Positions 2,640 through 20,024 of a DNA stretch of 23,414 nucleotides are shown here, piece after piece (positions within the stretch are counted from its first letter, which is position 1; each line of letters begins with the position of its first letter). The notes under the pieces were generated by a model, which worked only from the letters and a program-made list of their open reading frames with translations, made no database searches and was not told the DNA's origin. This stretch comes from Myxococcota bacterium (GTDB lineage: Bacteria > Myxococcota > UBA4151): NCBI GenBank assembly GCA_036338695.1, contig JAYZBQ010000074.1, forward strand, positions 1-23,414. The letters are read 5' to 3'. Made by a program: the position numbers and the translations under genes.

Positions 2640-3890
2640 GTGAACAAGCGATTTCTGGTCGGGTTGATCGTGGGCTGCGTAGGGGGCGGTTGCGCCGATG
2701 AGCCGGCGGCGCCAAAGCCAGAGCCTGAGGCGTTGATTCGCCCCACGAGCGTGACGGAGTTGACCTGGCCTGAGCGGTCGTATGCGCTGCCCACGGAGTG
2801 GGCTGGCTCGACGCATATCCAGATCGCTGAGCATCCGACCATGGGCACCCTGGTCGGGGGACCGAGTGGTTTGTTTCGGTTGCAAGGTGATCAGCTGGTC
2901 TCGGTGCACGAGGGAGAGCAGATCCCAGAGGTAGACGAGGGCGCAGTCTATGGTTTGAGCGTGGCTCAGGAATTTGTCTGGGTCGCCTCCGAGAACGGGC
3001 TGAGCGTTTTTGACGGCGTGCTTCGGGCTTCGCCGATTAGTGATCAGCTCCCCGAGGGCTCGGTCCGGGCGATTGCGCAGGTAGGCGAGTGGTTGTGGAT
3101 CGCCCTCGAGGCGGGTGTGTTCGCCTTCGACGGGGTCCGCTTGAGTCAGCTGACGACGGTTCCGGGGGTCTTTCGTATCACCCGCGGCGGCGAGGGCTTG
3201 GTCAGCGTGACGACGGTTCAGGGCGAGTCCTTCTTGTTGAAGGTGACCGATGACGGCTTGATGCAGCAAGACCTCGGCGGTCAGGGAGCTCTTAGGGACG
3301 TGGTGCCGCTGCGATCGGACCGAGTTTTTGCGCTCGAGAGTGGGACCCTGCGGGTGCGCGTCGCAGCGGACACGGGTGACCTAGTCTGGCGTCGAGCGAC
3401 GCTCAGCTCCGATGAAGGGGCAGAGCCGGTGACGCGCGCCTGGAGCATGAGCCCGACCATCGATGGCGCCGGCGTCTGGCTGGCGAGCCCGGACTCGGTC
3501 AGCCGGTGGGTGGGCGAGACCGTCGAGCAGCTAGCGACCCCGATCGGGATCGGCTCGGTGATGCGGATCCACCCGATGGCGAACGGACAGCTCTGGCTTG
3601 TAGGCGCCGAGCGCATGGTGCGCCTGGGCGCAGACGATCAGCCACCGCCGACTTATTGTGCGGACATCGACCCGTATTTTCAGGCGAACTGCTCTCGGTG
3701 TCACAACAACACACCGACAGCCCAAGCGTCGAATCTCGACGGCTACGCGATCTGGTCTGAGCGCTACGAGTCGATCTATTCACTGATCCAGGCGGGCGCG
3801 ATGCCGAAAGATGCGCAGGGCCGTGTAGATGGAGAGGCGCTCTATATGTTACAGCGCTGGCAAGAGGGGGGGATGATCGAGTGCGAGTGA
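2640..3890 (+). CDS. Putative lipoprotein with beta-propeller-like region and C-terminal monoheme cytochrome c domain
   Basis: Lipobox-like GGGC after a hydrophobic stretch; repeated short strand motifs (VWVASENGLSVFDG, LWIALEAGVFAFDG); CSRCH at 3690-3704 followed by AGAMPK (distal Met) and LQRWQEGG. Confidence 0.75.
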   Translation: MNKRFLVGLIVGCVGGGCADEPAAPKPEPEALIRPTSVTELTWPERSYALPTEWAGSTHIQIAEHPTMGTLVGGPSGLFRLQGDQLVSVHEGEQIPEVDEGAVYGLSVAQEFVWVASENGLSVFDGVLRASPISDQLPEGSVRAIAQVGEWLWIALEAGVFAFDGVRLSQLTTVPGVFRITRGGEGLVSVTTVQGESFLLKVTDDGLMQQDLGGQGALRDVVPLRSDRVFALESGTLRVRVAADTGDLVWRRATLSSDEGAEPVTRAWSMSPTIDGAGVWLASPDSVSRWVGETVEQLATPIGIGSVMRIHPMANGQLWLVGAERMVRLGADDQPPPTYCADIDPYFQANCSRCHNNTPTAQASNLDGYAIWSERYESIYSLIQAGAMPKDAQGRVDGEALYMLQRWQEGGMIECE

Positions 3891-5557
3891 CCCTACTGAT
3901 TGGCTTGTTGGTGGGGCTTCCCCCCTTGGCCTACGCGGCTGCGACCAACGACACCGAAGCGCCTATGTGCCAGCAGACGCCGGTTCAGGAGCAGCTCCAT
4001 TACCTACGCCGTCTCAGCCTTGACCTGAGAGGACACCTCCCGAGCGTCGCTGAGTATGAATTTGTGGCGCAGTCCGGTCAGGTCAGCGCGCAACAGATCG
4101 AAGAGATGCTGGCGTCGGAAGAATTTGTCGGCCGGATGCGCCGCTATCACCGCGACTTGTTATGGGTAAACATCGGCGCGCAGCGCCTGAGCAACAACCA
4201 ATGGCGCCTGACCGGCGATGGTCGGTCCAACGGTCTGTGGATCGGTGCGAACAACCGAGCCACTCGTTTTCGTGGGGCACGCGTCAACTGCGGCGACTTT
4301 GAGAGCTCGACGACCAACGGACGGATCGACACGAGGCCCCATCCGAACGCTGAGTTAGCGGCTGAGGGCGTCGTCCAAGAGGGCTGGGTTTGGGTTCAAC
4401 CGTATTGGAACCCGGATCAGCCGGTGAAGGTCTGCGCCTTCGATGCTCAAGAAGGCTTGCAGGGCACCAACGAAACCAACCGCGGCCCTGCTCAGGTTTC
4501 CTGCAATACCGGCTTAGCAAATCGCTCCTCAGAGTGCGGTTGTGGACCAAACCTTCGCTGGTGCCTTACGCGTGACACCGAGAATCAGGTGCGACGTTCG
4601 TGGGACGAACAACTGCTGCGCTACGCAGACTCGGTCGTGCGCGACAACCGCCCCTACTCGGATCTGCTGACCGGTCGGCAGATGGAGGTGAACGGACCGA
4701 TCACGCACTTCCTTAAGCACCTGACGCACGCACCCGGCAACGCGCTCCTCGTGACGGGAGCGCAGGGCTACGACCTGCCCGAGGATCTAGGTCACCACCA
4801 GTTCGATGAGTGGCGTTCGGCGCCGCGCAATGGGATGCACTCAGGGGTCCTCACGTTGCCCGCGTTCTTGATCAAGTTTCAGAGCAACCGCGGGCGAGCG
4901 ACTCGGTTCTACCACGCCTTTCGATGTGAGGCGTTTCAGGCGCCTCCTGGCGGATTACCAGCGACCGACGACGCCTGCCACACTGAGCCGAACCTGACCA
5001 AGCGCTGCGGATGCAAGTACTGCCATGTCAGCGTTGAGCCAGCCGCTGCGTACTGGGGGCGTTGGTCCGAGCAGGGGATCAAGCCCCTATTCGCCGAGGC
5101 TCAGTCGGACGCCTACCCGGCCTTCGACCCGAACTGCGGTCCAGAAGGGCGACAGCGCGGCTCGACCCGCTGCAGGCTTCATTACATCAACGAGATCTTC
5201 GCTGAGGACGACGCCCGCAAGCCCTACGAAGGGTATCTGCGGAGCTACTTGTTCTCTAACGACTTAGGCGAGCAGAACGGCTCCTATGGGAACAACATCG
5301 AAGAGGGGCCTCAGGGGATGGCACAGAACATCCTCGACCCAGCTGATGGTAGCTTTGCACGCTGCACCTCTCAGCGCATCTTCGAGCACTTCACCGGCCG
5401 GTCTTTTCGACCGAGCGAGGCAGCGCTTCAAGGGCAGCTGAGGTCGTCGTTTCAGTCGGGCTTCGACCTGCGCTCGCTCGTGCGCCAGATCGTCACCAGC
5501 CAAGAATACCGCGAGGCAGCACGCTTCGGCTTGATCAAGGACGGAGGTGATCAATGA
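3881..5557 (+). CDS. Exported Cys-rich DUF1549/DUF1585-like protein with a CxxCH motif
   Basis: Signal peptide (AYA/A); YLRRLSLDLRGHLPS (DUF1549-type); HSGVLTLPAFL...SNRGRA; CKYCH at 5012-5026; C-terminal FARC...FDLRSLVRQIVTSQEYR (DUF1585-like). Overlaps the upstream stop; the start could be GTG 3887. Confidence 0.75.
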   Translation: MRVTLLIGLLVGLPPLAYAAATNDTEAPMCQQTPVQEQLHYLRRLSLDLRGHLPSVAEYEFVAQSGQVSAQQIEEMLASEEFVGRMRRYHRDLLWVNIGAQRLSNNQWRLTGDGRSNGLWIGANNRATRFRGARVNCGDFESSTTNGRIDTRPHPNAELAAEGVVQEGWVWVQPYWNPDQPVKVCAFDAQEGLQGTNETNRGPAQVSCNTGLANRSSECGCGPNLRWCLTRDTENQVRRSWDEQLLRYADSVVRDNRPYSDLLTGRQMEVNGPITHFLKHLTHAPGNALLVTGAQGYDLPEDLGHHQFDEWRSAPRNGMHSGVLTLPAFLIKFQSNRGRATRFYHAFRCEAFQAPPGGLPATDDACHTEPNLTKRCGCKYCHVSVEPAAAYWGRWSEQGIKPLFAEAQSDAYPAFDPNCGPEGRQRGSTRCRLHYINEIFAEDDARKPYEGYLRSYLFSNDLGEQNGSYGNNIEEGPQGMAQNILDPADGSFARCTSQRIFEHFTGRSFRPSEAALQGQLRSSFQSGFDLRSLVRQIVTSQEYREAARFGLIKDGGDQ

Positions 5558-6192
5558 GGCCGCTCTCGTGTGTGATCCTTTTGGCTGGTTGCACCGCGCT
5601 TGAGCCGCCCGCCGCGCCCGTTCAAGCGCCAGCGCCTCCGGCGCACTTCCAAGATCATTGGTCGCCGGCGGAGCAGGCGAACGAGCGGCAGGCTTGGGCG
5701 CACCCGGACCAGGTGCCGATGGGGCAGATGCCACGTCGCCTAGAGGTCGAGCATCTCCGGCAGTCGATCCCTCGACTGTTCGGTGGGATTCAATGGCAGG
5801 ACCGCAACGAGAATTCGATGTGGGATGTCCTGAGCCGAACGTTGGGTGAGGCTGATTACGTCGAGGTGACTGAGAACAACGTGGAAGCGACGCCGCTGTT
5901 TGCGAAGTTCATGGACGACATGGCGGCGCAGGTCTGCTCGAAGGCGCTCGACCGAGATGCGCAGACGGCTGAGGCCGAGCAGCGATTGGTGCTCAGGCAC
6001 GCCGACGTCAAAGCCAACTTGCGCTTCCTGCGGCTCAAGCTCCATGGCGTGATGGTCGATGCGGACAACGACGCAGCGATCCAAGATTACCACCAGCTCC
6101 ATCAAGAGATCAGCGCTCAGGCGACGATGGGACAAGCCTGGCTCGGGGTGTGTATGGCGATGCTCACCGCCCCCGAATTCTTGACGTATTGA
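5554..6192 (+). CDS. Hypothetical lipoprotein of the DUF1585/DUF1501 cluster
   Basis: Lipobox LAGC; ATGA overlap with the upstream gene; C-terminus WLGVCMAMLTAPEFLTY resembles the 'xxPEFxxY' ends seen in such clusters. Confidence 0.7.
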   Translation: MRPLSCVILLAGCTALEPPAAPVQAPAPPAHFQDHWSPAEQANERQAWAHPDQVPMGQMPRRLEVEHLRQSIPRLFGGIQWQDRNENSMWDVLSRTLGEADYVEVTENNVEATPLFAKFMDDMAAQVCSKALDRDAQTAEAEQRLVLRHADVKANLRFLRLKLHGVMVDADNDAAIQDYHQLHQEISAQATMGQAWLGVCMAMLTAPEFLTY

Positions 6193-6202
6193 GGAGGTGA
6201 AG

Positions 6203-7582
6203 ATGAAACGTCGTGACTTTCTCAGATCGTTGACCGCCGGATCGCTCGGGCTGATGCTCGGCAACGGCTTGTCGATTCAGCGCGCCTTCGCCGCAGGACC
6301 GCTCGACCCGTACCGTAAGTTTGTCTTTGTGTACTTCTCAGGTGCTTGGGATGTCTTGCTCGGGTTGGACCCTCGGGACCCCGACGAGTTCACCGAGGAG
6401 CGGGTAGAAGACACCGGAATTCAGCCCGCCTGGCACCTCGTCGAGGCCGGTAACCCGGGCGCCTACATGGGTTTGGTCGGTGGGGACGATGCGCCGTATC
6501 GGCTCGGGCCTGCCATGGACGCTATGCTGCCCCATTACGACGTCTGCTCGGTGGTGCGCGGCATCGCCATGGACACGGTGACGCATGAGGTCGGTCGCCG
6601 CTACTTTATTACGGGGATGATGCCACGTGGCTTGTCCGCTGCGGGTTCATCGATGGGGACACGGATCGTGGCGCAGCAGGGCGACCGGACCCCGATCCCC
6701 AATTTGGTCTGCCGAACCGAGAGCTACAACGAGGGGGATCCGGTCTATTCGAGCGCGCTCAGCGTGGGCAGCGTGGCGGATCTGGTCTCGACGCTCGAAG
6801 ACGGCCCGAGCGCGCCGCCGGTCGACAGCGCCGTGCGGCAGGCGCTGAGCCGCTTTCGTCAGGAGCAGACGGCGTACTGCGACCCGAGCGCCTTTAACCG
6901 CTTTGGTATGCTGGAGGGAGTGCGCTCGAGCGCCGTCAAAGCGCGCGACCTCGTCGAAGGCTCGGGTCAGGGCTTGGCGATGGCGGATCTGTTCAACTTT
7001 CGGCTCAACGAACACGCCGAGCTGCGGGATCGTTATGGCTTTCCACGATGGGATCTGGACCATGAGGGCGCGCGGGTGGCGATGGCATTTCAGGCGCTCA
7101 AGCACGGCGTGGCGCAGTCCATCACGGTCACGGCGGCGGGGGGCCTCGACACCCACGATGAGAACTGGGCTGCGGACCAGCTCGAGCGGCAAAAGGGCGG
7201 CTGGGATCGCGTCGCGACGTTGATCGCCGACCTCAAGGCGACGAATGATCCTGATGTCCCGTCGAAGCGATTGATCGACACCACCACCATCGTCTGCTTC
7301 AGCGAGTTCAGCCGCACGCCTAAGCTCAACGTACGCAACGGGCGCGACCACGCCATCGTCAACTCCGCGCTGATCGCCGGCGCAGGCGTGCCCCAAGGGC
7401 AGCTATTCGGCGCGACCAGCGAGGTGGGGATGAACGCCATGCCGGTGGACGCACGCACCGGGCAGTTCTCGGTGAGCGGCATGACGATTACGCCGAACAA
7501 CCTCCTCGCGTCGGTGTTAGCGAACGCGGGCATGGATACCGATAAGCTGCGGCATGACGGGTTGCCCTTTTTGCGTGTCTGA
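6203..7582 (+). CDS. DUF1501 domain-containing protein, Tat-exported
   Basis: ATG 6203 preceded by GAGGAGG; MKRRDFLR twin-arginine signal; VFVYFSGAWD, LDTH, SEFSRTP and GRDH motifs. Confidence 0.85.
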   Translation: MKRRDFLRSLTAGSLGLMLGNGLSIQRAFAAGPLDPYRKFVFVYFSGAWDVLLGLDPRDPDEFTEERVEDTGIQPAWHLVEAGNPGAYMGLVGGDDAPYRLGPAMDAMLPHYDVCSVVRGIAMDTVTHEVGRRYFITGMMPRGLSAAGSSMGTRIVAQQGDRTPIPNLVCRTESYNEGDPVYSSALSVGSVADLVSTLEDGPSAPPVDSAVRQALSRFRQEQTAYCDPSAFNRFGMLEGVRSSAVKARDLVEGSGQGLAMADLFNFRLNEHAELRDRYGFPRWDLDHEGARVAMAFQALKHGVAQSITVTAAGGLDTHDENWAADQLERQKGGWDRVATLIADLKATNDPDVPSKRLIDTTTIVCFSEFSRTPKLNVRNGRDHAIVNSALIAGAGVPQGQLFGATSEVGMNAMPVDARTGQFSVSGMTITPNNLLASVLANAGMDTDKLRHDGLPFLRV

Positions 7583-8860: not shown

Positions 8861-11566
8861 TCAGCGCGGCGTGAAGCGGATGGCGTAGTTGGTGTAGCGC
8901 GAGACCTGCCCGCTGGCTTGATAGATCGCCTGCAACGCCGTCTGAGCGTTACGCTGGATGCCGATACTTAGCGAGCGCCTCGTGTACTGAGCGTTTTGGA
9001 TATTGACCTGAATCTGGTTGCTGCCTTCGAACAGGACGACCTGGAAACGGACCGTCGTGCCGGCGCTGTATTCCCGACCGCTGTGTTGGTAGATAAAGCG
9101 CCTTGAGCCAGCGTTTCCAATCGTCTTCCACTGGACCGTGTTGTAGTCGATATCCCCCCAGAATGCGGCGACCATCGGCTGGTTTTCGAGGTTGGAGTAG
9201 TTGGTCGGTAGCCTCTGCCCACTACAGCAGGCATTCCCACCGTCTGACCCGAAGGTCATGGTCCCGTTGCTGCCAATGTACACACGGCTGTAGCTCTGCC
9301 CGTACATTCGGAAGTTAAAGCCGAAGTCGATGGCGCCGGAGGTCACGTCGTCCGAGCGTGAGGTGATTACCGTACGTTGCCAGCCCCCGTTCTCCCACGA
9401 GTAGCGGGGCCCGGAGTCGCAGTTGCTGTTCGCCCAGCGGTAGTCGGCGCTGATCCCGCCGTTGTCACCGCAGCTGATCTCCCGGCAGTTGTTGCTGCAC
9501 AGGTCGTTGTCGTTGTTGTTGCCGTCATCGCAGGCCTCGACGCCCGCCTGAACGATCCCATCGCCGCAGCGCGCCGCCACGCAGTTCGTTCGGCAGGCGT
9601 CGGTCTCAACTTGGTTTCCGTCATCGCAGGCTTCAACGCCGCCTTGAACCACGCCGTCGCCGCAGCGAGCCGGATCGCAGCTGTTCCGGCAGGCGTCGGT
9701 CTCGACCTGGTTTCCATCGTCGCAGCCTTCAACGCCAGCTTGGGTAAATCCATCGCCGCAAGCTGCGCGCGCACAACTGCCGACGCAGGCGTCTGTGTTA
9801 TCTTGGTTGCCGTCATCGCAGGCCTCAACGCCCGCTTGGACAAACCCATCGCCGCACGCTGCGAGCGCGCAGCGACCCACGCAGCCGTCGTCATCGGCTT
9901 CGTTGCCGTCATCACAGGCCTCGTAACCTGGCTCGCCCTCTGCGAGGTCGTCGCGCACGATCGAGTCGCCGCAGCGCGCAACCGTGCACGCGTTGGTGCA
10001 GATGTCCGTATCGGTCTGGTTACCGTCGTCGCAGGCCTCGTAGCCCGCCTCGAGCTCGCCGAGGTCCTGACGGCGCACGCCGTCGCCGCAGGCGGCGACC
10101 TCGCAGTTGTTGCGGCAGGCGTTTCGGTCGTTGCCGTCGCCATCATCACAGGCTTCCTCGCCATCGCGCACGAAGCCGTCGCCGCAGCGCGCCAGGGCGC
10201 ACGTGGTCAAGCAGCCGTCGGTGTTCTCAGCGTTGCCGTCGTCACAGGCTTCATAGCCCGGCGCATCCTGCGCTAAGTCATCGCGCAAGAACCCGTCGCC
10301 GCAGCGAGCCACCTCGCAGTTATTCGTGCACGCGTCCGTGTTGATCTGGTTTCCGTCATCGCAGGCGTCGTTCGGGTCGACGATGCCGTTGCCGCAGATC
10401 TCGACACCGCAGATGGCCGAGCACCCGTCCGCCGGGTCGTTGTTACCGTCGTCGCAGCCTTCGAAACCCGGCGCATCGACCGCCAGGTCTTCACGCAAGA
10501 ACCCGTCGCCGCAGCGCGCCTGCGCGCAGGCGTTTGTGCACGCATCGAGGTCACTACGGTTCCCGTCATCGCAGGCTTCGCCTTCATCGACGATGCCGTT
10601 GCCACAGATCTCACGCAGGCAGGTCGGCGAGCAGCCGTCACCCGCTTCGTCATTACCGTCGTCACAGTCCTCAAACCCGTCGGCGCCCCACTGCAAGCCG
10701 CGGCGCACCACGCCGTCGCCACAGCGCGCCAGCTGGCACGTGTCGGTGCAACCGTCTGAAGCTTCGGTGTTGCCGTCATCACAGACCTCAAAGGGTTCGC
10801 CGTCTTCGTTGAGATCCTGGCGAATGATCCCATCGCCGCAGGCGCCCGGAGCGCAGCGGTTGGTGCAGGCGTCTTCATCGATCAGGTTGCCGTCATCGCA
10901 CTGCTCTCCGGGACCGACGATCCCGTCACCGCAGACTTTGGGTCGGCACTCATCACACTCGTCGTCGGGGTCTTGGTTGCCGTCGTCGCAGCCTTCACCG
11001 AGACCGACGACGCCGTCGCCGCAGATCTGCGGGGTGCAGTCGGACTTGCACGCGTCGGTGTCGTCTTCGTTGCCGTCATCGCACGCCTCAAAGCCCTCAT
11101 CGGCTTCGCCGAGATCTTGCCTGACGACGCCGTCGCCGCAGCGCGCGACCAGGCAGTTGGACAGGCAGGCGTCCTCATTGACCAGGTTCCCATCATCACA
11201 GGTCTCGTAACCGGACATGCCCTCGCTCAGGTCATGGCGAATGACGCCGTCGCCGCAGCGCGCCAGGATGCAGGTGTTCAGGCAGCCGTCTTGCTCGTTG
11301 TCGTTGCCATCGTCGCAGGCTTCAAAGTCGACGTCGTCGGCTTGCAGGTCGGCTCGTGTGATGCCGTCGCCGCAGAAGGCGGTGTCGCAGCTGTTGGTGC
11401 AATCGTCCGTGTTCACGCTGTTGCCGTCGTCGCACGCTTCCCCGACCTCGATGGATCCAGTCCCGCAGTTGGCGGCGCGGTCGCGCACCATGACGTCCGA
11501 TTCCGTGCAGCTCGTGGCGGTGAGCAGGGCGCAGAAAGCCAGGGGCATGAGCAGTCGAGTTGTCAT
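8861..11566 (-). CDS. DUF4215 / Myxococcus cysteine-rich repeat lipoprotein with nidogen-like C-terminal domain
   Basis: Lipobox-like TATSC at residue 20; 19 repeats of CGDG...ExCDDGN...DxCxxxC; C-terminal DD..SGAIDFGFNFRMYGQSYSRVYIGSNG...AAFWGDID. Confidence 0.88.
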   Translation of the reverse strand: MTTRLLMPLAFCALLTATSCTESDVMVRDRAANCGTGSIEVGEACDDGNSVNTDDCTNSCDTAFCGDGITRADLQADDVDFEACDDGNDNEQDGCLNTCILARCGDGVIRHDLSEGMSGYETCDDGNLVNEDACLSNCLVARCGDGVVRQDLGEADEGFEACDDGNEDDTDACKSDCTPQICGDGVVGLGEGCDDGNQDPDDECDECRPKVCGDGIVGPGEQCDDGNLIDEDACTNRCAPGACGDGIIRQDLNEDGEPFEVCDDGNTEASDGCTDTCQLARCGDGVVRRGLQWGADGFEDCDDGNDEAGDGCSPTCLREICGNGIVDEGEACDDGNRSDLDACTNACAQARCGDGFLREDLAVDAPGFEGCDDGNNDPADGCSAICGVEICGNGIVDPNDACDDGNQINTDACTNNCEVARCGDGFLRDDLAQDAPGYEACDDGNAENTDGCLTTCALARCGDGFVRDGEEACDDGDGNDRNACRNNCEVAACGDGVRRQDLGELEAGYEACDDGNQTDTDICTNACTVARCGDSIVRDDLAEGEPGYEACDDGNEADDDGCVGRCALAACGDGFVQAGVEACDDGNQDNTDACVGSCARAACGDGFTQAGVEGCDDGNQVETDACRNSCDPARCGDGVVQGGVEACDDGNQVETDACRTNCVAARCGDGIVQAGVEACDDGNNNDNDLCSNNCREISCGDNGGISADYRWANSNCDSGPRYSWENGGWQRTVITSRSDDVTSGAIDFGFNFRMYGQSYSRVYIGSNGTMTFGSDGGNACCSGQRLPTNYSNLENQPMVAAFWGDIDYNTVQWKTIGNAGSRRFIYQHSGREYSAGTTVRFQVVLFEGSNQIQVNIQNAQYTRRSLSIGIQRNAQTALQAIYQASGQVSRYTNYAIRFTPR
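9485..11467 (-). repeat. Coding tandem repeat array (19 Cys/Asp-rich units)
   Basis: Counted 19 CDDG-containing units in the translation; recurring + strand motifs such as gttgccgtcatcgca and ccgtcgccgcagcgcg. Confidence 0.9.
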
Positions 11567-12498: not shown

Positions 12499-12569
12499 AC
12501 CAAGCTCCTGTTACGGCTCTTCACATGCTCTGGGGATCCCGTTACAGGCAAGCTCGAAGGAGATCGTCG

Positions 12570-13268
12570 ATGCAAACTCAGATCGATCATCAGCCGAGTT
12601 TTGCTTGGCTCAAGGTCCAGCTCGACCCGGGTGACATCATCCAGGCTGAGGCGGGCGCGATGGTGACGATGACACCTGGGCTGCCGATGAGCACGCACTT
12701 GAACGCAGGTAAAGGCGGCATGTTTCGTAAGTTCAGGGCGTTTTTCGTTGCGCTGGTGCGCAAGTTTATCGGTGGAGAGACTTTTTTCGTGAACCGCTTC
12801 GGCGGCGCGCAAGGTGGCGAGGTAGTGTTGGCGCCCGCGCTCTCTGGCGACATCACGCAGATCACGATGACCCCAGCGACGCCACCGATCATTATCCAAA
12901 CCGGCGCGTACCTGGCGAGCACGGGGGATATCGACACCAAGCTGCGATGGGGCGGACTCCGGGGGCTGTTCGGCGGCGAGGGTCTGTTTTTTATGGAGTG
13001 CAGCGGCAACGGCGAGCTCTTCATTAACAGCTACGGCGGGATCATCGAGGTCCCCTGCAACGGTCGCTACATCGTGGACACAGGGCACATCGTCGCCTTT
13101 GACGCGGACTTGAACTTCAAGATTAAGACGCCAGGTGGTGGGGTGCTTGGCTTCCTCGGGAGCGGAGAGGGCTTGGTGATGGAGTTTCATGGCCAAGGCA
13201 CGATCTACATGCAGAGCCGCAACGTGAGCGCATTGGTGGGCTGGGTCTCGCCGATGCTGCCGATGTAA
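12570..13268 (+). CDS. TIGR00266 / AIM24 family protein (1 of 3)
   Basis: Start corrected to ATG 12570 (AAGGAGA upstream); AEAGAMV, GGETFFVNRF, GGEGLF, VDTGHIVAF and GQGTIYMQSR motifs. Confidence 0.9.
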   Translation: MQTQIDHQPSFAWLKVQLDPGDIIQAEAGAMVTMTPGLPMSTHLNAGKGGMFRKFRAFFVALVRKFIGGETFFVNRFGGAQGGEVVLAPALSGDITQITMTPATPPIIIQTGAYLASTGDIDTKLRWGGLRGLFGGEGLFFMECSGNGELFINSYGGIIEVPCNGRYIVDTGHIVAFDADLNFKIKTPGGGVLGFLGSGEGLVMEFHGQGTIYMQSRNVSALVGWVSPMLPM

Positions 13269-13279
13269 GGGGAGGCGTC

Positions 13280-13969
13280 ATGGAAATTGAGGTCAAATAT
13301 CGCCCCGCGCACTCGCTGGGCGTGGTCCGCTTGGGCGCAGGCGAGTCGATCACCGCCGAAGCCGGCGCCATGGTCACCATGAACGATCAGGTGCAGGTCT
13401 CGACGACGGCGCGTGCCGGCGCCGGCGGCGGTCTGTTTAAATCGCTTAAGCGAACCTTTCTGACGGGTGAGTCTTTCTTCACGAACACCTTCACCGGGAC
13501 CAGCGCCGGCGGCGAGGTCACGCTCGCTGCGAGCCTCTGCGGTGACATGAGCGTTCATGACTTGGTGCCCGGAGAGGACCTCCTGATTCAGAGCACCAGC
13601 TATCTAGCGAGCGACTCGAGCGTTGCCCTTGATACGCAGTTCCAAGGGCTTAAGGCTTTGTTCTCAGGTGAGAGTTTCTTCTTCCTGAAGTGCAGCGGCA
13701 AAGGTCAGGTCGCCATGTCGGCCTTTGGGGGCATGGAGGTCATCGACCTCGACGGTGAGATGATCGTCGATACGGGTCATCTCGTCGCCTTCACCTCCGG
13801 GATCAGCTACCGCACGACCAAACCGGGCGGCTCCTGGTTGCAGGCGTTCTTTAGCGGTGAGGGGATCGTGCTGCACGTGAGCGGGAAAGGGCGGCTCTAT
13901 CTCCAGACCCGCAACCCGAGCGAGTACGGCAGCTATGTCGGCAGCAAGCTGCCGGCTAGGGAGCAATAA
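13280..13969 (+). CDS. TIGR00266 / AIM24 family protein (2 of 3)
   Basis: AEAGAMV, GESFFTNTF, VDTGHLVAF and SGEG...GKGRLYLQTR motifs; GGAGG RBS. Confidence 0.9.
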   Translation: MEIEVKYRPAHSLGVVRLGAGESITAEAGAMVTMNDQVQVSTTARAGAGGGLFKSLKRTFLTGESFFTNTFTGTSAGGEVTLAASLCGDMSVHDLVPGEDLLIQSTSYLASDSSVALDTQFQGLKALFSGESFFFLKCSGKGQVAMSAFGGMEVIDLDGEMIVDTGHLVAFTSGISYRTTKPGGSWLQAFFSGEGIVLHVSGKGRLYLQTRNPSEYGSYVGSKLPAREQ

Positions 13970-13970
13970 G

Positions 13971-14654
13971 ATGCAGACAGAGATGTTGCAAAAGCCCGAT
14001 TTTGGGATCCTTAAGGTGACCTTTGAGACGCCCGGGGAGACCATCCTGTGTGAGAGCGGCGCCATGGTGAGCCGCTCGGCTGAAATGCAGATGAAGACGT
14101 CGATGCGTGGTGGGTTGCTCGCCGCAGCCAAGCGTAAGTTGCTCGGCGGAGAGTCGATCTTTCAGAACACCTTTACGGCGACTGCGCCGGGTCAAGAGAT
14201 CTATCTCGCCGCCTCGCCCGAGGGCGACATCGAGCAGCTGACCCTGGCACCGGGTGAAGAGTTTTATCTGCAGAGCGGCGCCTACCTCGCCTCAGAATCC
14301 ACGGTGACCCTCGACACCAAGTTCGGGGGCTTCAAGGGGTTCTTTGGCGCCGGTATGTTTCTGGTCAAAATGGTCGGACCGGGGACCTTTTGGTTCAACA
14401 GCTACGGCGCGCTGCATGCGGTCGACGTGAACGGTCGCTTCACCTGCGACAACGATCACGTGGTCGGCTTTGGGCCCGGCTTGGACTACAACGTGCGGCC
14501 CTTTAACGGGCTGAAGGGGCTCTTCTTCTCGGGCGAGGCGCTCGTCTGTGAGTTCTCGGGGCAGGGGCGTCTGTATGCGCAGACTCGGCGGGGGCCGAAC
14601 CTCGCTGCCTTCTTGCATCCGTTTCGGCCGGTCAAGGCCAGCAGCAACGACTAG
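13971..14654 (+). CDS. TIGR00266 / AIM24 family protein (3 of 3)
   Basis: Start corrected to ATG 13971; ESGAMV, GGESIFQNTF, DNDHVVGF and FSGQGRLYAQTR motifs. Confidence 0.9.
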   Translation: MQTEMLQKPDFGILKVTFETPGETILCESGAMVSRSAEMQMKTSMRGGLLAAAKRKLLGGESIFQNTFTATAPGQEIYLAASPEGDIEQLTLAPGEEFYLQSGAYLASESTVTLDTKFGGFKGFFGAGMFLVKMVGPGTFWFNSYGALHAVDVNGRFTCDNDHVVGFGPGLDYNVRPFNGLKGLFFSGEALVCEFSGQGRLYAQTRRGPNLAAFLHPFRPVKASSND

Positions 14655-14660
14655 CCGCCC

Positions 14661-15524
14661 ATGAAGCTCGGCGCCTTCGAGATCCAGGTGGTAGAGGACG
14701 GGCGGTTCGGGCTCGACGGCGGCGCGATGTTCGGGATTATCCCGCGCCCGCTCTGGGCGCGTTCGAACCCGCCGGACGAGGCGAACCGGATCGAGATGGC
14801 GCTGCGGTGTCTGCTGATCCGGACCGAGGATCGGTGCATCCTGATCGATAACGGCATGGGTGAGCAGTGGGATGCGCGCCAGCGGTCGCAGTTCGCGCTG
14901 AGCCGGACCCCCGTTCCGGGGCTCGTCGAGAACCTTGCAGCGCTCGGCGTGGACCGTCTCGATGTCACCGACATGGTGTTCACGCACTTTCACTTCGACC
15001 ACAACGGCGGCACCGTTCAGCCGGACGGGGCGCTCACGTTTCCCAACGCCATGCATCACGGCTCCAAGACCAACTATGAGCAGGCGCTGAATCCGAGCCC
15101 CAAGGACGCGGGCAGTTTTCGGGTTCAGGATCGCGCTGGGCTGGTGCTGGGTCAGAACCTGACCCTGCATGATGGACCTTGGATCCTTTGCGAGGGGGTC
15201 GACTTTCTCGTCAGCGACGGACACACCTTGGGCATGCATCTTCCCCGGGTTCGAGCCGAGGGTGAGACTTTGGTCTACTGCGCGGACCTCATCCCCACGT
15301 CGAGCCACCTGCACCTGCCTTGGGTGATGGGTTATGATTGCATGCCCGTGCGCACCATCGAGGAAAAAACCGACCTATTGGCTCAAGCCTATGCCGAGCG
15401 CTGGGTTTTGGTGTTCGAGCATGACCCGGAGATCGACGCATGCCGCGTCGATCAGGACGACCGAGGACGCTATCGTCGCGGGGAGGTCATCGACCTCGGC
15501 GGGCGCGGGCGCAGCTGGGGCTAG
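14661..15524 (+). CDS. MBL-fold metallo-hydrolase, YtnP-like
   Basis: FGLDGGAMFGIIPRPLW, THFHFDHNGG (HxHxDH), GHTLG, ADLIP, WVMGYD and FEHDP motifs. Confidence 0.9.
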   Translation: MKLGAFEIQVVEDGRFGLDGGAMFGIIPRPLWARSNPPDEANRIEMALRCLLIRTEDRCILIDNGMGEQWDARQRSQFALSRTPVPGLVENLAALGVDRLDVTDMVFTHFHFDHNGGTVQPDGALTFPNAMHHGSKTNYEQALNPSPKDAGSFRVQDRAGLVLGQNLTLHDGPWILCEGVDFLVSDGHTLGMHLPRVRAEGETLVYCADLIPTSSHLHLPWVMGYDCMPVRTIEEKTDLLAQAYAERWVLVFEHDPEIDACRVDQDDRGRYRRGEVIDLGGRGRSWG

Positions 15525-15527
15525 GCC

Positions 15528-16604
15528 GTGGCGGATCAATCGGGCGAGAAGACAGAAGAGGCCACACCGCATAAACTGCGTGAGGCGCGCAAAAAAGGTC
15601 AGGTCGCCAAATCACAGGACTTTACCACCGGGATCGTCTTCGCGCTTAGCGTGGCGGTGCTCATGATCACGCTCCCGCAGATCTCGAGCGATCTCCAAGC
15701 CTTCGTTAAGCGCTGCTTCCAGATGGGGCTCGAGTCCCCGAGCGCTGCCACGATCACCTTGCTGATGAGCGAGGGGCACATGCTGATCTTGACCATCATC
15801 ATGCCGCTGCTGGGCGTCGCCGTGGTGGCGGCGGTCATGGGGAACTTCATCCAGTTTGGCTTCTTGTTTACGACCAAGCCGCTGGAGCCGGAGCTCAAGA
15901 AGATTAACCCGGTCGAGGGCGCAAAAAATCTGATCTCCAAGAAGAAGCTGGTTCAGATGCTTCTGAGCATCTTGAAGTTCAGTGTGGTGAGCTACTTGGT
16001 CTACAACGCCCTCGCGGAGGACATGAAAAACGTCGTGCGCGCCGGGTTAATTGGCGTGGAGGCCGGCGTGTATGTGCTCTGGGATATGTGCATCCGCCTG
16101 ATCGTTCAGGTCGCCGCCTTCTTGTTTGCCGTCGGCGTCCTCGATAGGTTCTGGCAGCAGCACGTCTTTGCCAAAGAGCAGAGAATGTCCAAACATGACG
16201 TGAAGCAGGAGTACAAACAAACCGAGGGTGACCCGCACATCAAGGGGCAGCGTCGACAGCTCGCCGAAGAGCTTTTGATGCACGGGTCGATCGAGGACGT
16301 AAAGAATGCGGATGTTGTCGTGGTGAATCCAGAGCACATAGCGGTCGCCTTGCGCTACAACGATGATGAGGAGGCGGCGCCACGGGTCATGGCGAAGGGC
16401 CAGCGCGTCATGGCGGAAAAAATCAAAGAGGTGGCGCGGCAGTTTGGCGTCCCGATTATGCGCAATGTCCCGTTGGCGCACGCGCTGCACGATGTCGAGA
16501 TCGGCGAAGAGATCCCAGAGGAGCTCTACGAAGCAGTCGCGGAAGTCCTGAATTTCGTGTATCAGCTGGAGGCAGAAGAGGCGGAGCGTCGTAAGCGTCG
16601 ATGA
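15528..16604 (+). CDS. sctU: Type III secretion export apparatus switch protein (SctU/EscU/FlhB family)
   Basis: GEKTEEATPHKLREARKKGQVAKS, four TM regions, KKINP, KQEYKQTEGDPHIK, VVVNPEHIAVALRY (autocleavage loop) and NVPLAHAL...EIPEELYEAVAEVL. Confidence 0.93.
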   Translation: MADQSGEKTEEATPHKLREARKKGQVAKSQDFTTGIVFALSVAVLMITLPQISSDLQAFVKRCFQMGLESPSAATITLLMSEGHMLILTIIMPLLGVAVVAAVMGNFIQFGFLFTTKPLEPELKKINPVEGAKNLISKKKLVQMLLSILKFSVVSYLVYNALAEDMKNVVRAGLIGVEAGVYVLWDMCIRLIVQVAAFLFAVGVLDRFWQQHVFAKEQRMSKHDVKQEYKQTEGDPHIKGQRRQLAEELLMHGSIEDVKNADVVVVNPEHIAVALRYNDDEEAAPRVMAKGQRVMAEKIKEVARQFGVPIMRNVPLAHALHDVEIGEEIPEELYEAVAEVLNFVYQLEAEEAERRKRR

Positions 16605-17029
16605 ACAAACGGGTGGGTCCAAGTACGGTAGGTGGCGGCTGGGGGTTCCCGGTGACGCCCCGCGGCGTGGCGACCGACCACAAGGTCCGAGACGCAGAGC
16701 CTGCCAGCTTTGATCCGCGCACCGCGCCGCTACCTGAGCATGGTGTACTCGAGCAGATCGATCCGGACCAACGGCGCAGGCAGCTGCTCTGGCAGCTCGA
16801 AGAGGAGCTGCCCGAGCCGACGCGGTTCGCTCAGCTCATGGCAGAGTTCATGGAGCAGGCTCGCCTCGATCTCGACATCGACTTGGACGACCCGAGCTTG
16901 TCAGAGGCGGAGGTTGAGCGGCTCAATCGCCTGCTTGCGGACGAGTCGGCGCTGATCGAGATGATGCGTCGCACCGAGCGGCTGCGGCTTGAGGTGCGGG
17001 CGCGCGCCGCGAGTGAGCGAGCCTCGTGA
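16601..17029 (+). CDS. Hypothetical protein, possibly T3SS-associated
   Basis: ATGA overlap with sctU and GTGA overlap with the next gene; Gly/Pro-rich N-terminus and helical acidic C-terminus. Confidence 0.7.
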   Translation: MNKRVGPSTVGGGWGFPVTPRGVATDHKVRDAEPASFDPRTAPLPEHGVLEQIDPDQRRRQLLWQLEEELPEPTRFAQLMAEFMEQARLDLDIDLDDPSLSEAEVERLNRLLADESALIEMMRRTERLRLEVRARAASERAS

Positions 17030-17472
17030 GCGTCGCACGGGACTTGTTGGACGGCCGAGTCACCCTCGCTGAGCTGCGTGGGTACCACCCTTCAGCGATC
17101 GCTGCGCTGTGTCATGATGCGCTGGCGCTGCATGAGAACGGTCGCACCGATGAGGCGATGGTGATGCTTCGGGGGCTGCGTGCCCTTGAGCCGGCGAACG
17201 TGCAGGTGCTGCGCCTGTTGGGGTTGATCCTGACGGAGCGCGGCGCGCACCGAGAGGCGTTGGGTTATCTCGACGACGCGCTCCGGGCGTCTCCGAGCGA
17301 TGCACGCTTGCGCGTGGCGAGGGCTCGGATTCGGCTGCAACTCGGTGATGGACGAGGCGCTGGGGCGGACCTGAGGATCGCCTGTGACCAAGCCGATGGA
17401 CCCGGTGGCCAGCACGCCGCTCTTTTCTTGAAAAAAATAATGGCTGAGGCCGCAACCCCGCGCCCCCTGTAG
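17026..17472 (+). CDS. TPR protein resembling SycD/LcrH class II T3SS chaperones
   Basis: LLDGRVTLAELRGY...ALALHENGRTDEAMVMLRGLRALEP parallels the SycD/LcrH N-terminal pattern; about three TPR-like helical pairs. Confidence 0.72.
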   Translation: MSVARDLLDGRVTLAELRGYHPSAIAALCHDALALHENGRTDEAMVMLRGLRALEPANVQVLRLLGLILTERGAHREALGYLDDALRASPSDARLRVARARIRLQLGDGRGAGADLRIACDQADGPGGQHAALFLKKIMAEAATPRPL

Positions 17473-17479
17473 CCGATAC
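17452..17479 (+). promoter_or_regulatory. Possible sigma28 (FliA)-type promoter
   Basis: -10 GCCGATAC (17472-17479) versus consensus GCCGATAA; weak -35 GCAAC 15 nt upstream; AT tract at 17423-17440. Confidence 0.35.
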
Positions 17480-17534
17480 CGCTTGTGAACAGAACGCAAA
17501 CCCGGGCGTGAAAAGCCCACGATAGGAGAAGAAG

Positions 17535-18632
17535 ATGGTCATTGGATCCAACTCCCTCGGTACCAATCTCAACCGTATGCTCGATAGCCTCGGCTACCCG
17601 GACATGGTCGGTGATCTTCAGGGCGCGAACGTCGACCTGATGACCGGAAACCTCGCGGGCTACTTCCGCAACATGCAAGACGCCTTCTCGGGGCTCCCGT
17701 CCCAAGGCTTCGACCAGATGCTCGGCAACCTGCCGAAGCCCTTCAGCATGCAGAGCCCTCGACGTGGGCTGGCTCGTAGCCGCTTACTGCACAGCAACAC
17801 CTACAGCAACGCGCTCGGCAGCACCACGACTGAGACCCGCGACCTGCGTATGGGGCGTAGCCGCCGCGCAGCCCGCTCCCTCGAGCGAGCGATTATGCGC
17901 AACCCGGCTTTCCGCAACCGCATGGAAGGCATGATCGGCGGGCGCATCGTCCTTGATGGACGCGCCGACGGTCGCTTGACCGTGGTGAAGCACCAGGCGA
18001 ACCCGGCAGCTCACATGGGCTTTGGCATGACCGCTGGCATGGCAGCGATGAACCCGCTCGCCGGGACCCTCTACGGCTCGCTCGCTCGGATGGACCAAGA
18101 TTTGGGTAAGTTGGTTGAACAAGCTGGTCGCAAGATCGGTAACAGCATCTTGGGTCAGCAAGGTACCGGGCAGTCGGACATCGGCAAGCTTGTGGGTCCC
18201 AACGCCTCGATTGAAGACAAGCTCGCAGCATTTCTCTTTACCCAAATGCGTGACGCCGACAAAGAGCTCGAAGGCTTGATGAAGAAGTACGAAGCGCTGG
18301 GTAAGAAGAAGAAAAGAGGCGGTCTCTTCGGCGGTATCAAGAGCTTCTTCAAGGGTGTTGGTCAGAAGCTGTTCAAAGCAGGCGGTGGCGCACTTGGTGG
18401 CATGATCGGGGGTCCTCTGGGTGCGAAGTTGGGTCAAGGTATCGGTGGTGCGTTGGGTCAAAGCGCTCTGGGCGGTAACAAGTCCAAGTCAGATACCGAC
18501 CACTCCAAGAGCGTGTTGAACTTCAAGATTCAGCAGGCGATGAATCGACGCAAAGAGATCCACGACCTGATCTCGAACATCCTCAAGACCATGCACGACA
18601 TGAGCATGACCTCGATCCGCAACATTCGCTAA
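17535..18632 (+). CDS. Putative T3SS-secreted protein (translocator/filament-like) with glycine zipper
   Basis: AGGAG RBS; no Cys, no Trp, no Sec signal; Gly-rich amphipathic segment; C-terminus ISNILKTMHDMSMTSIRNIR resembles T3SS needle/filament C-terminal helices; directly follows the chaperone. Confidence 0.6.
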   Translation: MVIGSNSLGTNLNRMLDSLGYPDMVGDLQGANVDLMTGNLAGYFRNMQDAFSGLPSQGFDQMLGNLPKPFSMQSPRRGLARSRLLHSNTYSNALGSTTTETRDLRMGRSRRAARSLERAIMRNPAFRNRMEGMIGGRIVLDGRADGRLTVVKHQANPAAHMGFGMTAGMAAMNPLAGTLYGSLARMDQDLGKLVEQAGRKIGNSILGQQGTGQSDIGKLVGPNASIEDKLAAFLFTQMRDADKELEGLMKKYEALGKKKKRGGLFGGIKSFFKGVGQKLFKAGGGALGGMIGGPLGAKLGQGIGGALGQSALGGNKSKSDTDHSKSVLNFKIQQAMNRRKEIHDLISNILKTMHDMSMTSIRNIR

Positions 18633-18654
18633 TCGAGTCCCCCTTGGGGAGGAT

Positions 18655-18691
18655 GCAGCACCCGGGCGATGCCCGGGTGTTGTTCTTTTTT
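18655..18691 (+). terminator. Rho-independent terminator
   Basis: Stem CACCCGGGC-GAT-GCCCGGGTG (extendable with G-U pairs) followed by TTGTTCTTTTTT, between convergent genes. Confidence 0.8.
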
Positions 18692-20024
18692 ACGAAGATT
18701 TCGAACGCATCTGCCCCACGGCGACGGCGACCCATCGGTCCCCGCTGAGTCGCCAGGTGCACAGCAGGGCACGCGCCGTGACCCAGGCGCAAACCGCCCA
18801 CCAGAGCCCCTGCAGCGAGTCACCGAGCACGACCAGAGCGATCGGGAACACCAGGGCGCTCGCAGCCACCATCTGCGCAGCAAGAAACCCTAGGTCGCCG
18901 GCGCCCTTTAGCAGTCCGTCGGCGACGAAGGCCGCGCTGGCAGGGACCGTCTGCGCCATCATGGGCAGAAGCAGAGTGGCGAACGCCATCTGCGCCACCC
19001 CGTCGAGCCCGATGAGCCGGGCGATCCCGCTCCAGCTGAGCGCCAAAAGCGTGCAGAGCACGACGCATAAGATGACGCTATGGCGCATCAGGCGCCAGCC
19101 GAGCGTGCGCGCTTGGTGGTGTTCGCCCGAGCCGATCAGCTGGCTACCGAACGCCGTGCCTGCATGGGCGAACCCATCGATAACAAAGGCGAGCAAGAGC
19201 CAAATTTGGAGAGCGAGACCATGTGCGGCGAGCTCGGGGGTCGAGAAGCGCTCGGCGTAGACCGAGCTGCCGACCAGCACGGCGTTAAGGAAGAGCCCGC
19301 GCCAGAGGGCTTTACCACCGAGCTGTACGCTGAGCTGGGTCATGGGGCTCAGCTCGAAGCGCCGAACCGCTCGCCTCCCAGCCGCTGAACGCCAGCCCCC
19401 CCAGCGCCCGATGGGGAAGCTCGCGCAGCCGACAGCGGTGAGCGCCGCCAGGCTCGAGCCGAGCGCCAAGCCCGTCAGTCCGAGCCCGAACCCAAAGACC
19501 AAAATCGCGTTGTAGACGCTGTTCGCGATCAGCGCGACCGCCATGACGAGGATCGGTGTCCAGACGGCGTGAAAGCCAGCCCTGAGGACGCCAAAGGCGA
19601 CAAAGCCTGCCATCTCAAAGGGTAAACCGAGGAGGCGGAGTTGGAGGTAATGGCGCGCACCGGAACCCGTGGCCTCGCTCTCGGTGATCGCCATCACGAC
19701 GTGCCCGAGGAGCCATCCAAGGGGCGTGACCAGAATCAGCCCGAGCCCGATGGCGAGCCAGAGAGCTTGACCTGCAAGCTGTGCAGCCTCATCGTCTTTT
19801 GACGCGCCCTTGAGGCGACCGAGGACGCCAGGGAATCCACCGATCAGCTGACCGCCGACCCAGCCGACGGAGCTAGCGATCCCGCCGCCGAGCGCAAGGC
19901 AGGCGAGGTCTTGCGTGCTCAACTGGGCGGCGAAGTAGGTGTCGACCAAGGCGATGAGCGGCTGTAGCGCCCCAGCGACCATGCTGGCGACGATAAAAGG
20001 GATCGGGAGCCGGGGGCGATCCAT
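18690..20024 (-). CDS. MATE family efflux transporter (DinF-like)
   Basis: Likely start ATG 20024 (MDRPRL...); QPLIALVDT, YLQLRLLGLP, LAAHG..LQIW..LAF.IDG and DGLLKGAGD motifs; about 12 hydrophobic segments. Confidence 0.88.
   Translation of the reverse strand: MDRPRLPIPFIVASMVAGALQPLIALVDTYFAAQLSTQDLACLALGGGIASSVGWVGGQLIGGFPGVLGRLKGASKDDEAAQLAGQALWLAIGLGLILVTPLGWLLGHVVMAITESEATGSGARHYLQLRLLGLPFEMAGFVAFGVLRAGFHAVWTPILVMAVALIANSVYNAILVFGFGLGLTGLALGSSLAALTAVGCASFPIGRWGGWRSAAGRRAVRRFELSPMTQLSVQLGGKALWRGLFLNAVLVGSSVYAERFSTPELAAHGLALQIWLLLAFVIDGFAHAGTAFGSQLIGSGEHHQARTLGWRLMRHSVILCVVLCTLLALSWSGIARLIGLDGVAQMAFATLLLPMMAQTVPASAAFVADGLLKGAGDLGFLAAQMVAASALVFPIALVVLGDSLQGLWWAVCAWVTARALLCTWRLSGDRWVAVAVGQMRSKSS

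Follow-up and report, generated by a model that had tools for sequence, protein, structure and literature searches.

A broken-off sctU operon piece in a Myxococcota genome encodes a candidate SctX-SctY-type pair and a protein with a needle-like C-terminal helix

A four-gene type III secretion module

The window analyzed here is the whole contig C74 (JAYZBQ010000074.1; 23.4 kb) of a Myxococcota bacterium assembly (3.36 Mb, 99 contigs, 93.6% complete). [quoted passage not shown] The original prediction had described these genes as a detached T3SS module. Indeed, all four open reading frames (ORFs) lie on the plus strand, intact and conserved, with an ATGA overlap between sctU and X and a GTGA overlap between X and Y. 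P365 contains neither Cys nor Trp, as had been noted; this holds for 17 of the 1772 predicted proteins of at least 250 residues, including flagellins and rod/hook proteins. P365 is followed by its own terminator-like hairpin with a T-run (18655-18683), and a scan of the 23 window ORFs yielded no further T3SS or flagellar gene, both as anticipated.

Table 1. Features of the module and related features elsewhere in the genome (window positions unless a contig, C, or an extracted locus, L, is given)
Feature	Position	Strand
SctU, export-switch subunit of Myxococcota T3SS*, 358 aa	15528..16604	+
Protein X, 142 aa, likely SctX-like exported partner of Y	16601..17029	+
TPR chaperone Y, 148 aa, likely SctY-like	17026..17472	+
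Promoter-like motif GCAACC-N15-CCGATA (sigma-28-type -10)	17452..17478	+
P365, 365 aa, likely T3SS*-exported; predicted helical hairpin around a Gly-rich cationic segment	17535..18632	+
Gly-rich cationic segment of P365, glycine-zipper-like, residues 256-317	18300..18485	+
C-terminal needle (SctF)-like helix of P365	18495..18629	+
Intrinsic-terminator-like 13-pair hairpin and T-run	18655..18693	+
Cassette: 79-aa helical, 183-aa needle-like, TPR, 128-aa, FliA-like sigma, SctI-like	G000:C42:30138-33122 (L058:2138-5122)	
Further motif copies	C8:21616, C22:45196, C38:4519, C48:354117, C61:24325, C65:921, C80:22626, C92:23817	

SctU belongs to a scattered Myxococcota T3SS*

SctU from the window scored 368.9 bits against the T3SS family TIGR01404, above the cut-off of 358, and 344.6 bits against flagellar TIGR00328, below the cut-off of 349.25; it is 33% identical to the FlhB of the same genome. 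A first SctU tree of 34 rows lacked resolution because of long branches, and we therefore built a tree of 18 rows, leaving out a fragment (G007), several close Myxococcota rows and the rows of the short-locus type (G112 short, G013, G018, G027 and G033). In this tree, the window SctU groups with the SctU of the Myxococcota system, T3SS* (support 92/88), next to YscU/AscU, and FlhB stands apart from it (98/95). We therefore rejected a flagellar identity of SctU, as the NCBIfam cut-offs and the tree both place it outside FlhB; its gene lies in neither the FlhB clade nor a flagellar operon.

A search of the whole genome for sct and flagellar genes revealed a full flagellum, encoded on contigs C76 and C48, as well as a second T3SS. 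A SctU nested within FlhB, in a genome with a flagellum and no injectisome, is thus not what we found, and in this respect the original prediction holds. Second copies of sctU, sctR, sctJ and sctN lie outside the flagellar clusters, and T3SS* genes occupy at least four contigs other than the window contig; contig C45 carries sctQ, a FliO-like gene and sctR, S and T, and contig C59 carries sctJ, L, N and O. The profile score of SctR exceeds its cut-off, those of SctJ, N, Q, S, T and L are best hits yet slightly or clearly below theirs, and the assignment of SctI is weak (E 0.038).

In relatives, the genes follow one contiguous order, E-F-G-H-sigma-sctI-J-K-L-N-O-P-Q-fliO-R-S-T-U-X-Y-...-sctV, which is close to that of Yersinia yscE-L and yscN-U, and several genomes show the order X-Y-P365-chaperone-sctV. 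X, present as a single copy in 60 of 121 genomes, is preceded by sctU in 27 and followed by a TPR gene in 22 of the best 30 X loci, while P365 comes next within 1.5 kb in 8 of them. As expected from the original prediction, the downstream genes therefore do co-occur with T3SS genes in relatives. Because relatives hold all parts contiguously in one order, we regard the window module as an operon fragment. Since the genome encodes a full flagellum and has T3SS* genes spread over no fewer than four further contigs, the module is almost certainly a broken-off sctU-X-Y-P365 piece of a scattered Myxococcota T3SS*, rather than a special satellite. The proposal of a satellite locus of an atypical T3SS thus stands as far as the non-flagellar, Myxococcota T3SS* type is concerned, whereas its being "detached" reflects a lineage-wide break-up of the operon.

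That the genes instead serve the flagellum or are decaying remnants is highly improbable. Such a reading would draw on the full flagellum, the dispersed T3SS* genes and the lack of a second sctV in the assembly. Against it stand the position of SctU outside the FlhB clade, the intact, conserved frames, contigs from RNA runs that cover P365 (see below) and the presence of a second sctV in all four same-family genomes searched, which makes an assembly gap likely here. Close counterparts of the neighbors of a relative's sctV were likewise not found in this assembly.

The cleavage motif of the window SctU is NPEH; most Myxococcota orthologs carry NPAH, NPDH or NPEH, not NPTH. In Myxococcaceae, the C-terminal domain of SctU is also encoded a second time, on its own, between sctU and X (L109:16598-16882, L055:7907-8197). 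SctN of the present genome (G000:C59:10769-12610; L060:3769-5610) has 613 residues with an N-terminal extra of about 180 residues and is encoded beside a short, 179-residue SctL; SctN of relatives has 437-469 residues.

X and Y resemble the SctX-SctY pair

The best NCBIfam match of Y is SctY, with 41.2 bits (cut-off 70), and Y scored 30.6 bits against SycD/LcrH (TIGR02552; cut-off 104.8), a cut-off that one Y ortholog passes. By hhalign, the Y family ranks SycD first (96.7%), with YscY at 91.1%. The earlier description of the TPR protein as SycD/LcrH-like thus agrees with the profile comparison, but Y stays below the SycD cut-off and has SctY as its best NCBIfam match.

We predicted the complex of Y with residues 28-142 of X, alongside three controls. 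X:Y reached an ipSAE of 0.79, compared to 0.00 for the best control; this mark is attained by 116 of 157 solved pairs and by 2 of 215 mismatched pairs. Prediction runs agreed in at least 70% of the contacts, with a predicted local distance difference test score (pLDDT) of the partner of at least 71. The surest predicted contacts place X helices 76-100 and 104-136 on the first TPR of Y, and residues 62-71 of X and 60-67/94-98 of Y also fall within the predicted interface. The same layout, two X helices on the first TPR, has been described for YscX:YscY (PMC9163089). As in Yersinia, a small protein and a three-TPR chaperone are translationally coupled and, in the ancestral order, encoded upstream of sctV; unlike in Yersinia, X follows sctU instead of sycN and shows no significant sequence likeness to YscX. 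Based on the predicted complex, X and Y probably form a SctX-SctY-type pair.

This assignment has to be set against the sequence comparisons. X gave no significant match to YscX in PDB, Pfam, NCBIfam, hhalign, a decoy search or Atlas, and hhalign of X with YscX reached 0.25%, rank 6 of 31. We therefore use the name "SctX-like" and do not file X as a family member. Moreover, as YscX:YscY has already been solved, the score of X:Y may reflect likeness to, or memory of, that complex.

P365 ends in a needle-like helix

One search returned 40 homologs of P365, which is conserved at 68-92% in near kin; the P365 profile matches 93 of 121 genomes, in part via the last helix alone. The conserved core comprises a helix (about 226-260), a variable loop of 17 to more than 200 residues and the C-terminal helix. 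Within residues 256-317, there are 22 Gly, 11 Lys/Arg and no acidic residues, and hydropathy is low; this segment is short or absent in some relatives.

A profile of the C-terminal region of the family placed the EsaG needle peptide (a PDB chain identified from PMC9426511) at the top of 177,635 PDB sequences (E 0.042 and 0.005). By hhalign, the C-terminal helix matched YscF/AscF with 79.7%, first of 31 T3SS proteins; the score was 29.2, compared to at most 12.1 in column shuffles (n=25), which do not control for helix periodicity. YscF and AscF ranked 3 and 4 of 2695 proteins for this helix, and T3SS_needle_F is the family matched by most members of the P365 family (8 of 37). A needle subunit is a helix-turn-helix of about 80 residues; P365 has 365, and its predicted hairpin contains a long insert.

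Models of full-length P365 (pLDDT 55) and of its C-terminal part (pLDDT 67) gave no Foldseek match. VIA-align of the C-terminal model returned only generic hairpins, with unrelated chains scoring equally high; among its matches were the IpaB coiled coil (Z 9.3, 92 residues aligned, root-mean-square deviation [rmsd] 3.0) and a chain from an entry for the Shigella export apparatus (Z 8.6, rmsd 1.7 over 73 aligned residues). Look-alikes in Atlas belong mostly to T3SS-exported families, all below 0.9 and to be read as leads only. We consider it likely that P365 is exported by the T3SS*.

The original prediction had paired Y with P365 as chaperone and cargo. Extended, Y would be a class II (SycD-type) chaperone for P365, and P365 a pore-forming translocator in the target membrane. 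P365 does resemble translocators such as YopB, AopD, SseD and NolX/HrpF in having a coiled coil followed by a Gly-rich segment, and in the SycD-like gene downstream in relatives; it matched SseD with E 7e-4 and YopB/AopB over 139 columns (hhalign 25%). The top hhalign rank of SycD for Y and the Y ortholog above the SycD cut-off point the same way, as do a Myxococcus relative that fuses a NolX/HrpF-like part to the same helix and two genomes, G036 and G039, in which Y sits with P365 and not with X, an arrangement that counts against an X-Y pair. However, P365 lacks a strongly hydrophobic segment, its peak 19-residue hydropathy being 0.91 (YopB 2.26, AopD 2.25; 1 of 31 family members reaches 1.6), and is cationic rather than apolar. 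No P/VxLxxP chaperone anchor (motif as given in PMC13466201) was found in P365, and 1 of 37 family members carries one; the YopB match falls to 5.8% with a wider C-terminal alignment, and the end helix is needle-like. In addition, X already occupies Y in the predicted complex, and a different SycD-like gene (of the type on contig C1) lies within 250 bases behind a P365-family gene in 14 of 30 loci. While the likely export of P365 retains the cargo half of the original pairing, Y as its chaperone, with P365 as a translocator, is quite improbable.

The same helix occurs at the needle position

A genome search with the P365 tail detected one other protein, a 183-residue protein on contig C42, whose family shows a profile likeness of 97.9% to the P365 helix. 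Its gene is part of a cassette that follows the yscE-F-G-H-I order (Table 1) and lies between E-like and G-like genes, before sctI-sctJ; the cassette TPR protein has CdsG as its best T3SS match (E 5e-5). The 183-residue gene is matched in 99 of 121 genomes. When the needle-position protein was used as a query in named genomes, nothing was found, and the loci were located through the adjacent TPR gene. Among the named Myxococcaceae loci with enough flank, 62 of 65 show the E-F-G order, M. xanthus AM003 included, where the 188-residue counterpart has T3SS_needle_F as its sole Pfam match (E 0.008). A gene resembling a needle-length ruler, by position and composition only, occupies the sctP position.

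In its C-terminal helix and a predicted two-helix hairpin, P365 resembles the SctF needles YscF, AscF and EsaG, which have SctE/SctG chaperones, and its 183-residue paralog shows the E-F-G-H-I order; differences are the long N-terminal regions, the Gly-rich insert and matches that remain below cut-off.

Alternatively, the system may be truly needleless, the helix being a chaperone-binding or export tag derived from needle proteins and P365 a soluble periplasmic cargo for a Kil/Tad pilus. Proteins ending in the helix range from 72 to about 780 residues, their N-termini are unrelated, and a single genome may hold as many as 15 matches; a TPR chaperone grips this helix in solved needle-chaperone complexes (PMC9426511), as would suit a tag. 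Moreover, no dedicated secretin was found, and Herrou et al. (PMC12075869) suggest the tips of Kil as the route of delivery. A mere tag is harder to reconcile with a strongly conserved member (99/121 genomes) that takes the place of sctF, flanked by E-like and G-like genes, and with the ruler-like gene at the sctP position; we regard the needleless alternative as unlikely.

Further proteins carrying the helix were observed in relatives. A 498-residue Myxococcus-type protein (L195:1492-2988, genome G112) combines weak NolX and HrpF matches with a P365-type C-terminal helix; a SycD-like gene lies directly downstream, and the locus is outside both T3SS clusters. Tandem genes for proteins of 72-91 residues, which consist almost only of the needle-like helix, lie in Myxococcaceae T3SS* clusters (L055:10008-13051, L110:1251-1475, L056:4808-5044); they have the size of needle subunits and no Pfam needle match. 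Loci L164-L175 encode proteins of 490-780 residues with unrelated N-termini and the same end helix, possibly polymorphic cargo; two of them were scanned and gave no Pfam match.

A promoter-like motif marks candidate substrates

The motif upstream of P365, in the form GCAACN-N14/15-CCGATA, also precedes the needle-position gene, sctI and two DUF1521 genes. We take its CCGATA -10 element to be of the sigma-28 type. Strict sites number 14 in the genome, compared to 2-7 in shuffles, with a peak at spacer 14; a loosened motif occurs in 18 of 45 related upstream regions and before 21 of 2640 genome genes. Needle-position genes carry the motif in 22 of 29 cases, always with a 14-base spacer. It also occurs upstream of X in 9 of 27 loci; this region therefore cannot serve as a negative control, and the motif extends beyond late substrates. 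Its presence there fits X being a substrate.

Behind the further copies lie two DUF1521 genes, each beside a SycD-like gene, a CHAP-like gene (E 7e-4, below cut-off), a gene with a transglutaminase-elicitor domain, a DUF5995 gene, a GH1 gene and two orphans. Orthologs retain the motif in all four testable cases for the transglutaminase-like gene and in one of two for the CHAP-like gene. We infer that the FliA-like sigma factor of the cassette reads the motif. The arrangement resembles the flagellar FliA regulon in its FliA-like sigma and a CCGATA-type -10 before exported axial proteins; it differs in the GCAACN -35 element, in the 14-15-base spacer and in a sigma factor 25% identical to the genome's own flagellar FliA. 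The motif was not found before the flagellin genes of the genome, and a sigma-70 promoter scan of the locus returned nothing on the plus strand.

In all eight RNA runs compared, of ten listed, assembled contigs cover part of P365, which indicates presence in RNA libraries only; the data are contigs without a DNA control, from which neither level nor strand can be read. Five of the runs have a contig whose end falls within 17497-17532, which hints weakly that a start lies close to the motif.

A model for a needle-type filament in T3SS*

Overall, we suggest, with a probability of about 0.6, that the module is a T3SS* piece with a SctX-SctY-type pair and with P365 as an exported needle-helix subunit that stacks on or caps a short filament. 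Taken by itself, a filament or tip role of P365 has an even chance, and membrane activity is doubtful. Both needle formation and activity on prey membranes are what we infer, while gene content, conserved order, the non-flagellar SctU, the shared motif and the likeness of the P365 helix to the 183-residue protein are observed, and the early steps draw on sequence, synteny and one predicted complex. In such a system, the FliA-like sigma of the E-F-G-H-sigma-I cassette would switch on the set of secreted genes, and the X:Y complex would dock at the export gate SctV. With the TPR protein and the small helical proteins encoded next to it as escorts, the 183-residue protein would polymerize on the SctI rod. 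Once SctU has switched export specificity, P365 would join the tip by means of the same helix, brought there by the SycD-like chaperone encoded behind it in relatives, and would expose its cationic glycine-zipper to the prey membrane, opening a path for cargo, e.g. the CHAP-like protein.

Several observations speak against a needle-building system. Abby and Rocha (PMC3459982) describe the Myxo systems as devoid of SctF, tip, translocon and secretin, and Herrou et al. (PMC12075869) and two reviews (PMC10849154, PMC10433427) give the same needleless account, with effectors unknown. In the present, incomplete assembly, neither a second sctV nor a T3SS-linked secretin was found; the three secretins of the genome lie in PilQ-like, type II secretion system-like and Tad-like settings. 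Needle subunits rank at the top for P365 in five tests, but all matches are below curated cut-offs and cover about 40 residues of one amphipathic helix, and both P365 and the 183-residue protein exceed a needle subunit in size by a factor of two to four. The 183-residue family reaches only 1.4% with YscF in hhalign, its profile found no needle chain in the PDB, and 16 of 30 family members match an unrelated helical family, with 7 matching needle and 7 HrpA. Finally, the E-like identity of the 79-residue protein lacks sequence support (hhalign 0.4% with YscE), and the cassette TPR protein is closer to SycD/YscY than to YscG.

A bolder version is tentative and, in our estimate, stands at worse than even odds: the "needleless" T3SS* would have a needle built from a conserved SctF-like subunit served by a chaperone cassette of its own, the same-helix family (P365, the minimal subunits of 72-91 residues, the NolX/HrpF-like form and forms of 600-780 residues) would supply swappable tips and cargo that co-assemble via the helix, SctX-SctY would gate export, and a private sigma-28-like factor would mark substrates, lytic cargo included. 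If so, a bacteria-targeting injectisome would stand at the base of the injectisome tree, with needle and translocator belonging to one protein family.

Relation to the M. xanthus T3SS* and implications

The T3SS* of M. xanthus (the "long" Myxo locus, MXAN_2434-2464; PMC3459982, PMC10433427, PMC12075869) shares with the present system orthologous SctU, J, L, N, O, Q, R, S, T and I, a FliO-like gene, several LcrH-like TPR genes, the lack of a dedicated secretin and Kil/Tad-like genes in the genome; FliO has already been reported in Myxococcota T3SS (PMC12403147). A complete genome of Myxococcus type likewise has X and Y behind sctU. In contrast, the genes are dispersed here over several contigs beside a full flagellum, and 74-residue helix-only proteins take the place of P365 in the Myxococcus-like cluster. 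In the literature searched, most subscription papers and supplements lying outside it, there is no report of needle-like or SctX/Y-like genes or of this motif in myxobacteria.

A requirement of T3SS* for prey lysis has been shown only in M. xanthus (PMC12075869), and recent papers describe as open by what means prey is lysed by a system that has no needle, no translocon and no known effectors (PMC10433427, PMC12075869). The standard account of how injectisomes arose also includes the loss of SctF in the Myxo lineage (PMC3459982). The locus is ordinary as an operon fragment, yet it exposes testable candidates for missing T3SS* parts and substrates, which the genetically tractable, harmless M. 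xanthus offers for study: the needle-position gene, the X-Y pair, cargo proteins with the helix and a promoter motif by which likely substrates can be listed across the genome. The module with its needle-like helix suggests that, contrary to the needleless description, a needle-type filament is made by predatory myxobacteria. Should this filament exist, needle and SctX/Y would have been retained in the injectisome lineage that branched off first, and translocators and needles may have a common origin.

At G000:C95:17442-22053 (L287), a secretin, an FHA-ATPase and a double-FHA protein resemble a Kil/Tad predation cluster that is cut by the contig end. Contig C17 carries an sctD-like FHA match near Tad-like genes, to which we gave no assignment.

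Neighboring genes in the window

Leading into sctU on the same strand (window 12525-15524) are three AIM24 (TIGR00266) genes in tandem and, last, a gene of the metallo-beta-lactamase fold; the latter adjoins sctU in all four same-family relatives. Farther upstream are a group of cytochrome c-like, DUF1549/1585/1553 and DUF1501 genes (2640-7582) and a gene for a 901-residue protein with 14 DUF4215 (Myxococcus cysteine-rich-type) repeats (8861-11566).

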